Positions 60,727-63,136 are shown, counted from the first letter of the stretch. The stretch: 64,000 nucleotides of DNA from Promethearchaeota archaeon (GCA_019058295.1 JAHPZI010000014.1:32001-96000); one strand, 5' to 3'. Notes: a model not told the origin generated them from the sequence alone. Made by a program: numbers and translations.

Positions 60727-61947
60727 ATGAAGATAGATTATACCTCTTATAAAGATGTAGATTTGAAAGGAAAGAAAGTGTTGATGCGGGTTGATATCAA
60801 TTCTAACATAGATGTAGAAAAGATGCAAATTACCAAATCACCTCGAATTGAAGTATTAGTACCATTTTTGAAGGATATTTACAATGAGAGTGCTGTAATT
60901 ATTATGGCTCACCAATCAAGACCAGGTAACGATGATTTCACCGATTTAGATATTCATGCTAGAGAAATCGAAAGACAACTTGGTAAACCCGTAAAATTTG
61001 TCAAGGATATTTATGGTGAAGTTGCTGTCAATGCAATAAAGGCTCTTAAACCGGGAGAAGTCTTAGTACTGAATAATATACGTAAATATGAAGCTGAAAT
61101 GAAGGGATATAAAGATTTTTCCGAAGCAGAGAATACTGATATGATAAAGACGTTGTTTCCCCTAGTGGATTATGTGATAGTGGATGCTTTTGGAGCAGCA
61201 CATCGAGCACATGCGTCTATCGTTGGTTGGCCTAAGATGTTAGCTGGCCCAATAACTGATAAGGAATTACACAATTTGAAAAAAATTGTGGAAGCACCTG
61301 ATAAACCTATGGCTATGCTTATCGGAGGGGCAAAAGCAATCGATAAATTTAAAGCTATGAAATACAATTTTGACAATGACAAATTAGATTATGCGTTATG
61401 CTCAGGATTAACAGCCATCTTAATTTTTGAAGCATTAGGTAAAGACATGGGAGAGATTAACCTTAAAATTACGGCGAAAGATCTGGAAGCAAATAAGGAT
61501 ATGATTATTGAAACTTATAATAAATACAAAGACAAGATAATCTTACCTGAAGATTTAATTATTGATGACAATGGGAAGAGAAAAGCGATTACAATTGATG
61601 AAGCTGGAACTGCAAATACAACCACAGGGGACATAGGACAAAAAACTGTAGAAGTTTTTAAAGAGATAATGGTAAAATGTAAAACTATAGTAGCAAATGG
61701 ACCTCCTGGCATATTTGAGAAAGAAGTGTTTAGAGCTGCTACCATGGATATGGTTGATGCTATGGTGGAAGCGACTAAAAAAGGAGCTTTAACCATAATA
61801 GGCGGAGGGGAAATGGGAGCTGCAGCTGCAATGTCTGGTAAAGATGATCAAGTCTCATTCATATCTACAGCAGGTGGAGCCATGCTTGAAATTCTCTCTG
61901 GAAATGACTTGCCCATGATTCGAGCATTAAGAGAAAAAAAATTATAG
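60727..61947 (+). CDS. pgk: Phosphoglycerate kinase
   Basis: RVDIN, HQSRPG, DAFGAAHR, GGAK, NGPPGIFE, ISTAGGA. Confidence 0.96.
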   Translation: MKIDYTSYKDVDLKGKKVLMRVDINSNIDVEKMQITKSPRIEVLVPFLKDIYNESAVIIMAHQSRPGNDDFTDLDIHAREIERQLGKPVKFVKDIYGEVAVNAIKALKPGEVLVLNNIRKYEAEMKGYKDFSEAENTDMIKTLFPLVDYVIVDAFGAAHRAHASIVGWPKMLAGPITDKELHNLKKIVEAPDKPMAMLIGGAKAIDKFKAMKYNFDNDKLDYALCSGLTAILIFEALGKDMGEINLKITAKDLEANKDMIIETYNKYKDKIILPEDLIIDDNGKRKAITIDEAGTANTTTGDIGQKTVEVFKEIMVKCKTIVANGPPGIFEKEVFRAATMDMVDAMVEATKKGALTIIGGGEMGAAAAMSGKDDQVSFISTAGGAMLEILSGNDLPMIRALREKKL

Positions 61948-62005
61948 AAGAATAATTTATTTTTTATTTTTTATTTTTATTTCACCGATACCTTCGCAAA
62001 GGTCA

Positions 62006-62042
62006 GTCCTCTTACGACTCCATTTTTTCTCGTAAGAATCAT
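62006..62042 (-). promoter_or_regulatory. SECIS-like element (eukaryote/Loki-type) in the 3' UTR of the UGA-containing ORF
   Basis: Minus strand reads AUGA-U-UCUUACGA-GAAAAAAUGGAG-UCGUAAGA-G-GA-C: tandem G.A/A.G core, perfect 8-bp helix and unpaired AAA at the 5' side of the loop. Confidence 0.62.
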
Positions 62043-62083
62043 TCAATTCGGGACTATTTTTAGTTTTTCTTTTGAAATACTTG

Positions 62084-62311
62084 CTATTGGATTTGTATTA
62101 ATTTAATGTCGTATATTTTATTGAGTTTATAAATTGAGAAGCCTTGCTTAAAGTTCACACATCCTCAACCTCCTCCTCCAGAATCACTAGCGTCTGCGCT
62201 ATTTTCACCATCACCTTCATAATACTGACTATTTAAATAAATAACAATTATCGTTATTGAAAAAGTCGTTAGAAGTGCAACTAAGGCAATTATTATAATA
62301 GTCTTTTTCAT
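62084..62311 (-). CDS. Candidate small membrane-anchored selenoprotein (75 aa, UGA at codon 49; 48 aa if UGA is a stop)
   Basis: Manual translation MKKTIIIIALVALLTTFSITIIVIYLNSQYYEGDGENSADASDSGGGG-UGA-GCVNFKQGFSIYKLNKIYDIKLIQIQ-UAG, followed by the SECIS-like hairpin. Not in the ORF track. Confidence 0.55.
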
Positions 62312-62508
62312 GTTTTTTTTTTTAGTAAGTTCCGATTTGGAAATTATAAAAACACCAATCCTTTTTTTTATTTTAATATAAATTGGGAATTTTTACTATA
62401 TAAAATGTGATAATTTTCTTAGAAATAAAATTAAATAAAATTAATATTTAGAGATTAATTTACAAATAGTAAAAGTTATATTTCAAAGGCAACAAGGGCG
62501 TGTTTTTG

Positions 62509-62611
62509 GGGCGCGTGTTAAGTTTTCAGATAGAAGCTTACGTGAAGTCTAGCCCGGTATGACGTCCGCTTGACGTGCGGAAGGTCGCGAGTTCGAGTCT
62601 CGCCGCGCCCA
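62509..62611 (+). tRNA. tRNA-Val(GAC) with 29-nt intron (62518-62546) between positions 9 and 10
   Basis: Acceptor GGGCGCG/CGCGCCC-A, D arm GTCT..TGAC, anticodon arm TCCGC-TTGACGT-GCGGA (GAC at 62572-62574), T arm GCGAG-TTCGAGT-CTCGC. The insertion is bounded by a BHB motif. Confidence 0.92.
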
Positions 62612-62647
62612 TTTTAATAATTTTTTATAATCAGCTAAAAGTTAAAA

Positions 62648-63136
62648 GTGAAAGATATGCCTTTAAAAATTCGATGGGTTAAGCGTGAATATTTTGGCAT
62701 AGCTTTAATGCTCTTTGGATTGTGTGCAATTTTTCAAGCTTTTTATATTTTTATTGCACAATATTTTCTAAGTATAGGAAATTATATTGTAATTATTATA
62801 ATCCCAATAGGGGTTATATTCGCATTATTTTACTGCTCTATAATTATATATGAAAGTTATGCCCAAGTGCAACGAAGTAGGAAAATTAAACGTGGATTTG
62901 CTAAAAGGATAATTGAAAAAGTTAGATTTAGAAAGTTCCTCGAAAGTCCTGTTGTAAGACCACTATTAATTATTTTTGCGATATATAGCGTTTTTTTCTT
63001 TCCTTCTTATTTTATTAGTATTATATGGTTTAACAATATTTATTCTTTTATTATAGCTGAAGTCATGGGGGCTATTGGATGCATTTTTGCTGCAAATATA
63101 ATCGAAAGACACTATGCAAAAATTCAAAGATATTAG
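62648..63136 (+). CDS. Hypothetical 4-TM membrane protein
   Basis: Four hydrophobic segments with a basic cytoplasmic loop. Confidence 0.7.
   Translation: MKDMPLKIRWVKREYFGIALMLFGLCAIFQAFYIFIAQYFLSIGNYIVIIIIPIGVIFALFYCSIIIYESYAQVQRSRKIKRGFAKRIIEKVRFRKFLESPVVRPLLIIFAIYSVFFFPSYFISIIWFNNIYSFIIAEVMGAIGCIFAANIIERHYAKIQRY

Follow-up and report, generated by a model that had tools for sequence, protein, structure and literature searches.

In Lokiarchaeota, the selenocysteine (Sec)-encoding genes of VhuD-HdrA, VhuU, PrxL and SPS carry a selenocysteine insertion sequence of the Lokiarchaeal type (lokiSECIS, or Asgard type I eSECIS-like element) in a short 3' untranslated region (3' UTR) (PMC4989117, PMC11227280). 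Seven Asgard selenoprotein families have been published, namely SelD, FrhA/VhuU, HdrA, FrhD/VhuD, PrxL, AhpF-N-like and DsbA-like, and these were found by homology to known enzymes (PMC11227280, PMC13188914); a SECIS-first search of two metagenomes by Mariotti et al. reported no new family (PMC4989117). Here, we describe a small gene on the minus strand of a 64,000-nucleotide stretch of the genome of a Promethearchaeota archaeon (GCA_019058295.1, JAHPZI010000014.1:32001-96000; the whole stretch is hereafter called the window), in which an initial annotation, made by reading the DNA without database searches, had proposed a hidden selenoprotein. The gene is real and unannotated, and it represents a new selenoprotein family that is recoded by the known Lokiarchaeal mechanism. 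It has the recoding system and the SECIS architecture of the lokiSECIS genes, and is also like them in helix I, in an inserted mini-hairpin and in the position of the element in a short 3' UTR, whereas those genes encode enzyme subunits and the window gene a membrane-anchored peptide of 75 residues. No domain homology to the seven published Asgard families was found with Pfam or NCBIfam, in keeping with the initial view that the protein is unlike the known Loki selenoproteins, and the family is absent from those published archaeal selenoprotein lists that could be searched.

The product consists, in order, of MKK, a 22-residue hydrophobic stretch, an acidic Ser/Gly-rich segment up to SGGGG, the residue encoded by an in-frame TGA (hereafter U), Gly-Cys and 24 more codons, the context at the TGA being S-G-G-G-G-U-G-C. 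The initial annotation had given the same frame, with one transmembrane (TM) helix and an acidic, Gly-rich linker before the UGA, and is correct in all of these particulars (Table 1). We consider it very probable that this is a 75-residue single-pass membrane selenoprotein, whose UGA at codon 49 is recoded via the lokiSECIS and the Sec pathway of the genome. The host genome (3.2 Mb, 30.7% GC, 79%-complete) has as its nearest public relatives metagenome-assembled genomes that bear the label Promethearchaeota/Promethearchaeia, as the Loki lineage of Asgard archaea is now called.

A lokiSECIS Element behind the Gene

The lokiSECIS has been defined by an AUGA, a 9-bp stem and a GA after the stem, with a loop of 11 nt in which the first bases are mostly A and the last base is G, usually after A (Mariotti et al. 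2016, PMC4989117). According to published statements, the GA is rarely AA, and standard SECIS tools fail on Loki elements. The element behind the window gene begins 41 nt past the TAG and 125 nt past the UGA (family members span 48-125 nt from the UGA), and has every feature of the published description except for the length of its apical loop. The AUGA and GA columns are invariant in 20 known elements, and a leading G in the loop, as found here, occurs among known VhuD elements too. The folding energy is -16.9 kcal/mol (z = -2.6). Both this hairpin and a second, smaller one had been correctly located in the initial annotation, which had parsed the stem as 8 bp plus a spare U; the hairpin stands, but a U.G pair turns the stem into a 9-bp helix, so that the accompanying concern over a short helix II falls away, this length being normal for lokiSECIS.

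A covariance model, R1, was trained on 20 SECIS elements lying directly behind known genes, with the candidate left out; of these 19 VhuD and 1 SPS elements, the SPS and three VhuD elements belong to this genome and the other 16 to relatives. In these training elements, 9/9 pairs were changed on both sides and 92% of the cells were paired, as against 38-45% in slid controls. With filters off, R1 matched the candidate at 62001-62048 with 47.6 bits (E = 9e-9), a score equal to that of one of its own training members, while the next match in the 64-kb window reached 16 bits. On the whole 3.2 Mb genome, R1 returned seven elements at E <= 0.1, all of which sit just downstream of UGA-containing ORFs: the candidate (47.7 bits), four training members (three VhuD and SPS, 47.8-56.4 bits), the element of a VhuU gene that adjoins a NiFe-hydrogenase large subunit (41.4 bits), and an element that follows a conserved gene containing a tandem TGA-TGA. 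A strict pattern scan gave only 10 matches in the whole genome, and the hairpin is well beyond what chance would produce. The hairpin is thus a bona fide lokiSECIS, and what had been called eukaryote-type is, more exactly, Loki-type and eukaryote-like. An Rfam scan of 61500-62700 at E <= 10 matched no SECIS family, the eukaryotic SECIS included, a result without weight, as Loki elements reportedly escape the standard SECIS models.

Helix II of the candidate, UCUUACGA/UCGUAAGA, is identical to helix II of a VhuD element in the related genome G015, and helix I and the mini-hairpin are common to the candidate and VhuD elements. Across 24 SECIS elements of the new family, seven of the nine helix II pairs are changed on both sides, and 91% of the cells are paired (slid controls, 44-58%). 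The candidate is closely paralogous to the lineage's VhuD-type elements, and has probably been copied from one of them. The local architecture extends beyond the core: in the window and at the VhuD loci L139, L133 and L124, a covarying lower helix, e.g., CCGAAU/AUUCGG, encloses the AUGA/GA core, and a mini-hairpin of 4-6 bp (ACC...GGU) follows the GA, ahead of the 3' strand of this helix, in VhuD elements and the new family alike.

If the UGA were a normal stop, the gene would encode a 48-residue peptide ending in GGGG, and the hairpin would be a terminator, an mRNA-stability element or the relic of a VhuD SECIS. The element does lie between convergent genes, with pgk on the other side, where terminators are expected, and the initial annotation had accordingly allowed for a terminator of pgk. 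Since VhuD elements carry the second hairpin too, this hairpin is part of an extended SECIS and not merely a pgk terminator; moreover, the full SECIS signature, with compensatory changes, has been kept in 24 genomes, which speaks against both a terminator and a relic.

Conservation of the UGA and of the Sequence beyond It

Homologs within the genus were sought by a six-frame search of relatives that read through stops. The gene is present in four other genomes of the genus (G007, G006, G009 and G004, with 87%, 49%, 40% and 34% identity), and each homolog has one TGA at the column of codon 49, with Gly-Cys after it, together with an R1-positive SECIS that shows compensatory changes in its stem. 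The U column holds TGA in 5/5 genus members, as well as in 11/11 and 7/7 members of two sister genera, g2 and g11, which are described below. Variants among strains in an independent sediment run listed no difference at the UGA codon, and included an in-frame deletion of 12 nt in the linker, a segment whose length also differs among homologs through in-frame indels.

The protein databases reflect the same codon in the errors of gene callers. A word-based search of 5.8 billion proteins returned truncated calls ending in ...GGGG, plus one call of 103 residues with W followed by GC. An exhaustive hidden Markov model (HMM) search of 1.84 billion representatives matched 11 proteins, ten of them in the family. 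Five of these ten stop at the glycines, and five have W before GC or TPTNC; P0012 (E = 1.2e-4), the remaining match, fits neither group and probably reflects the TM helix and acidic linker only. Neither Cys nor another stop stands at the U column in these eleven proteins. Callers read the column as W in six metagenomic proteins (P0002, P0006, P0007, P0008, P0011 and P0014), and cut six others at the glycines (P0003, P0004, P0005, P0009, P0010 and P0013). The gene has therefore been missed by gene callers, as had been supposed, its database copies ending in ...GGGG or carrying W at the TGA.

In an alignment of 14 family sequences, the Cys two residues past the UGA is the sole invariant residue. 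Its codon is either TGT or TGC, and the Gly codons around U are variously GGA, GGT, GGC and GGG, that of Gly50 varying between GGA and GGT. In five divergent homologs, no stop interrupts the frame for 24-30 codons past the UGA, and the other two frames contain 1-5 stops each over this stretch. Downstream conservation is clear in the g11 tails, and the remaining tail of the window's own subfamily is weakly constrained.

These data bear directly on the possibility of a normal stop. In its favour, the callers ended the six proteins just listed at this codon, the tail after the UGA is AT-rich and fast-evolving, and TGA is a common stop in the genome. On the other hand, the codon is always TGA and never TAA or TAG in about 30 sequences, with TAA five times commoner in the genome; the only invariant residue of the family comes after the UGA, with synonymous variation in its codon; and divergent homologs keep two dozen or more open codons beyond this point. 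We regard termination at codon 49 as very unlikely, and the internal UGA is almost certainly read as selenocysteine via the normal RNA signal of this lineage.

Selenocysteine Machinery and UGA Usage

The genome encodes most of a Sec pathway. A candidate tRNA-Sec (anticodon UCA; 44.2 bits, Rfam tRNA-Sec) precedes a SepSecS gene (480 bits) by 77 nt, EFSec is present with an archaeal SelB domain III (Pfam aSelB_III), and the selenophosphate synthetase (SPS) gene has its own in-frame TGA and its own SECIS. Of the components that the initial annotation had listed for verification, all but PSTK were found, the tRNA-Sec as a candidate. By this archaeal/eukaryote-type pathway, comprising tRNA-Sec (UCA), SepSecS, EFSec and SPS, codon 49 would be recoded to Sec under the direction of the Lokiarchaeota-type SECIS downstream of the TAG.

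Two features of the genome's RNA genes may be recorded here. The Sec-machinery genes form a cluster (G000:C30:98363-104077) with EFSec at 98363-99403 (-), the tRNA-Sec candidate at 102616-102699 (+) and SepSecS at 102776-104077 (+), and two NUDIX genes lie between its members. In addition, 27 intron-less tRNA genes are packed on both strands into 3 kb at G000:C22:30303-33335, while the other tRNAs are mostly scattered and contain introns; such an array is unusual for an archaeon, and may be a mobile or viral element or a contaminant contig.

Decoding of UGA as a standard amino acid, either Trp or Gly, through local or genome-wide reassignment would agree with the W that several metagenome pipelines placed at this codon. 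Yet TGA ends 182/1271 ORFs of >= 300 codons (14%), and therefore it is not reassigned in this genome. SepSecS, EFSec and a Cys-type FlpD contain no internal TGA, no tRNA with a UCA anticodon was found beyond the tRNA-Sec candidate in aragorn scans and an Rfam tRNA-Sec search, and a dedicated SECIS stands behind every family member. The probability of reassignment is negligible.

Several observations weigh against Sec insertion, and have to be set beside the evidence for it. The tRNA-Sec candidate scores just below the Rfam gathering threshold (47 bits) and has mismatches in its acceptor stem, and PSTK was not found (TIGR03574) in a genome that is 79%-complete. The apical loop of the SECIS has 12 nt instead of the usual 11, a length shared by one known VhuD element. 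Neither the 5.8 billion proteins of the word-based search nor the 1.84 billion representatives of the HMM search yielded a homolog with Cys, so that the Cys aligned to the UGA that the initial annotation had proposed to look for does not exist there, and the classical Sec/Cys pair of homologs is lacking. Past the Cys, the tail changes rapidly: pN/pS is 0.63 before and 0.69 after the UGA in the window's group (0.43/0.81, 1.09/0.65 and 0.53/0.89 in three others), constraint is weak throughout, and the two closest relatives differ after the UGA by non-synonymous changes alone. The conservation that had been sought past the UGA is nevertheless present in the invariant Cys and the synonymous variation of its codon, and the UAA or UAG at the U column that had been named as a refutation is seen in none of the homologs.

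Sister Subfamilies and Taxonomic Distribution

With a protein profile, small ORFs were also recovered in three sister genera (g2, g10 and g11), which belong to one archaeal family with the window's genus, and 24 of the 30 loci fetched in this way have an R1 SECIS directly behind the ORF. The g2 members consist of a TM helix, SLEE-x-GGG, U, P-x-x-C and a short hydrophobic tail of 14 residues. Those of g11 have a TM helix, an acidic run, C-F-U, C-x3-U or C-xx-U, and a conserved tail of 41-48 residues, and a g10 member meets a contig edge just after GGG-U. Each sister subfamily has an acidic linker, a single Sec close to a single Cys, and a lokiSECIS that comes directly after the gene; across subfamilies, the spacing between Sec and Cys ranges from one to three residues. 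Alignment of the groups by hhalign gave 96.9% probability over 40 columns, which run from the N-terminal flank through the TM helix into the first part of the linker; because the alignment covers only these parts, a shared origin of the Sec modules across subfamilies is plausible, but not established. Among 400 Asgard genomes, the profile had convincing members in one family of Lokiarchaeia only, and it matched nothing in four single-contig genomes of the sister family f2.

Some individual loci deserve mention. At L024 (G006) and at L052, L056 and L058 (g2), the frame is closed by a second UGA that precedes the SECIS by only 5-15 nt, and one mRNA would here use one UGA as Sec and another, too close to the SECIS, as a stop. 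L065 (G085, ~1500-1810) is of the g11 type and apparently reads C-N-C, with no in-frame TGA, an internal duplication of ~35 nt and an R1 SECIS of 40.9 bits. Conversion of Sec to Cys, a frameshift in a gene copy (C-R-A-U-P stands in another frame) and an error of assembly are all possible explanations.

A second candidate selenoprotein family came to light through the tandem TGA-TGA gene behind which R1 found its seventh genomic match (G000:C8:17997-18513 (-); L140/L147). The gene encodes ~155 residues, with the tandem in ...PD-x-G-C-U-U-E..., a strongly conserved region of 40 residues after it (..GKFKT..RKK.GKD.E.FAHYF) and an R1 SECIS (42.3 bits) ~120 nt past it. Two to three in-frame TGAs occur in 25/31 related genomes, the protein has no Pfam match, and the family was not found in published selenoprotein lists.

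Organization of the Locus and Gene Neighbourhoods

The features of the gene and its SECIS are collected in Table 1. The region in front of the gene is AT-rich, and the TATA-like box would, if it is the promoter, give a very short leader; the 80 nt upstream of the gene are identical in the closest relative.

Table 1. Coordinates of the selenoprotein gene and its SECIS element, counted from the first nucleotide of the window.
Feature	Position (strand)	Description	Basis
Possible archaeal promoter	62344..62350 (-)	TATA-like box TTTATAA, 33-39 nt upstream of ATG	Read from sequence
Start codon	62311-62309 (-)	ATG	Read from sequence
Complete coding sequence	62084..62311 (-)	75-aa selenoprotein, Sec = codon 49	Translation; homologs with same architecture and TGA column
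Predicted single TM helix	62237..62302 (-)	~residues 4-25, preceded by Lys-Lys	Mean Kyte-Doolittle 2.9 over 19 residues
Acidic Ser-/Gly-rich linker	62168..62236 (-)	Residues 26-48, ends GGGG	Predicted disordered, pLDDT <50
In-frame UGA (U49)	62167-62165 (-)	TGA, almost certainly read as selenocysteine	TGA column kept across homologs
Gly50-Cys51	62159..62164 (-)	Putative Sec partner in U-G-C motif	Invariance of Cys51, synonymous codon variation
Tail after Cys	62087..62158 (-)	24 residues, hydrophobic/amphipathic, C-x-[VIF]-[LIF]-x-[QRH] ...	Weakly conserved
Stop codon	62086-62084 (-)	TAG	Read from sequence
Complete SECIS	61985..62051 (-)	Extent including helix I	
SECIS helix I	62051-62048, 61988-61985 (-)	CCGA paired with UCGG	
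SECIS core	62042-62039, 62008-62007 (-)	AUGA and GA	
SECIS helix II	62038-62030, 62017-62009 (-)	5' and 3' arms, 9 pairs, no mismatch, first pair U.G	
SECIS apical loop	62029-62018 (-)	GAAAAAAUGGAG, 12 nt, A-rich, ends AG	
Mini-hairpin inserted in SECIS	62003-61990 (-)	ACCUU-UGCG-AAGGU, five pairs	

The neighbours of the gene are pgk and tRNA-Val in the window's genus, a radical-SAM gene and trmB in g2, and a Trm112-like and a glycosyltransferase-like gene in g11; no functional partner is common to the neighbourhoods of these three groups. In a pgk-anchored search of species genomes, the gene stood next to pgk in 2/15 related pgk loci. A tRNA at 62541-62607 (+) lies a short way upstream of the gene, on the other strand; the Rfam tRNA model matched it at positions 4-67 only, and aragorn missed it.

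At one g11 locus, a membrane thiol-reductant exporter of the CcdA/DsbD_TM type (28.5 bits, L050:1933-2601 (-)) adjoins the selenoprotein gene and is convergent with it, and a neighbour at L060:1895-2560 (-) looks CcdA/DsbD-like by eye, with no Pfam match at E <= 0.001. Such an exporter is a possible functional partner of some g11 members. The genome of the window has no clear copy of CcdA/DsbD_TM, and for this reason the neighbour is given little weight for the window gene.

Predicted Membrane Topology and Possible Functions of the Sec/Cys Pair

Neither Pfam nor NCBIfam gave the window protein a domain above noise, and AlphaFold2, run on an alignment of six rows, modelled a helix at residues 2-30 (pLDDT 84-91), the remainder being below pLDDT 50. 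Over 29 family members, the N-terminal flank contains 112 K/R, and the 20 residues after the helix contain 12 K/R and 126 D/E. By the positive-inside rule, this charge pattern would place the N-terminus in the cytoplasm, and the linker with the Sec/Cys pair is predicted to face outward. The mature protein would then be composed of a Lys-flanked N-terminal TM anchor, a flexible acidic and Gly-rich linker, Sec49-Gly-Cys51 and a short amphipathic tail.

Because only the Sec and the nearby Cys are under absolute constraint, the protein is best read as a membrane-tethered Sec/Cys pair, for which we can only infer a redox or a soft-metal function. The likeliest chemistry would be a reversible selenenylsulfide between Sec49 and the invariant Cys51. 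We tentatively propose, with somewhat less than even confidence, that the pair forms a redox-active arm which is tethered to the membrane, faces outward and serves in thiol/disulfide, peroxide or polysulfide chemistry.

The same pair, in an equally genuine selenoprotein, might instead be a high-affinity ligand of soft metals or metalloids (Hg, Cu, Cd or As), or a carrier of selenium or sulfur. Its spacing varies (U-G-C, U-x3-C, C-x-U and C-xx-U), which suits chelation as well as redox chemistry, there is no folded domain around it, the long acidic linker could attract cations, and the source samples are sediments. Nevertheless, the conserved neighbourhood contains no gene of metal resistance or transport, the CcdA/DsbD-type exporter beside some members of a sister genus points to redox maintenance, and the replacement of Cys by Sec is typical of redox catalysis. 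We consider a ligand or carrier role, the main alternative, to be unlikely without being far-fetched, and the redox-active arm remains the preferred proposal.

Comparison with Known Selenoproteins

The new family shows that a SECIS-first search recovers families missed by homology searches and gene callers. Following the AhpF-like and DsbA-like genes, it provides a second instance of a VhuD-like SECIS behind a new selenoprotein gene, and it adds to the organisms closest to eukaryotes a membrane-anchored, domain-less selenoprotein without a Cys form. Its short, well-defined peptides are targets for proteomics, by which the function of lokiSECIS in vivo could be addressed.

In mammalian thioredoxin reductase, a C-terminal Gly-Cys-Sec-Gly arm forms a selenenylsulfide and shuttles electrons. 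The window protein is similar in having a vicinal Sec/Cys pair, flanked by Gly, on a flexible segment, a likeness that allows functional speculation only. The order is G-C-U-G in the reductase and G-U-G-C here, and the pair of the reductase belongs to a flavoenzyme, whereas that of the window protein is joined to a membrane anchor, with a probable location outside the cell.

Eukaryotic SelK and SelS have a disordered tail in the cytosol, with Sec at one of its last three positions in a GG-U-G motif. The initial annotation had read the window protein as possibly SelK/SelS-like, and there is a real likeness in architecture: both are small single-pass membrane proteins with one N-terminal TM helix followed by a disordered Gly-rich segment containing GG-U-G, and both have a SECIS with an AUGA/GA core in the 3' UTR. 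An archaeal homolog or ancestor of these proteins of the endoplasmic reticulum membrane would also fit the position of the Asgard archaea, with their eukaryote-like SECIS, as the closest relatives of eukaryotes (PMC4989117). Nevertheless, sequence similarity is not detectable, and neither SelK_SelG nor Selenoprotein_S was among the Pfam matches of eight family members at E <= 1 or E <= 0.1. The window protein has 26 residues after the Sec, as against 1-3, so that its Sec is not near the C-terminus; its linker is acidic, whereas that of SelK/SelS is basic and Pro-rich; its predicted topology is the opposite, with the tail outside; and it is set apart by the invariant Cys two residues past the Sec and by a narrow taxonomic range, profile members occurring in one family only among the 400 Asgard genomes. 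In addition, no eukaryote-specific selenoprotein family was reported in Asgard archaea by Huang et al. (PMC11227280). The SelK/SelS-like reading of the initial annotation is not supported, and direct homology or ancestry is hardly credible.

A more far-reaching reading, which we hold to be distinctly improbable, would make the window gene the founder of an obligately Sec-containing family with no Cys form anywhere. Its members would be outward-facing, membrane-tethered selenenylsulfide arms of Lokiarchaeia, with the pair on a disordered linker that lacks a folded domain, and the family would be the first membrane-anchored one among the described selenoproteins of Archaea. In its boldest form, this reading would see in the family an archaeal counterpart of the SelK/SelS type, by either convergence or very distant ancestry. 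If this were true, small tail-type membrane selenoproteins would have arisen on the archaeal side of eukaryogenesis, alongside the eukaryote-like SECIS.

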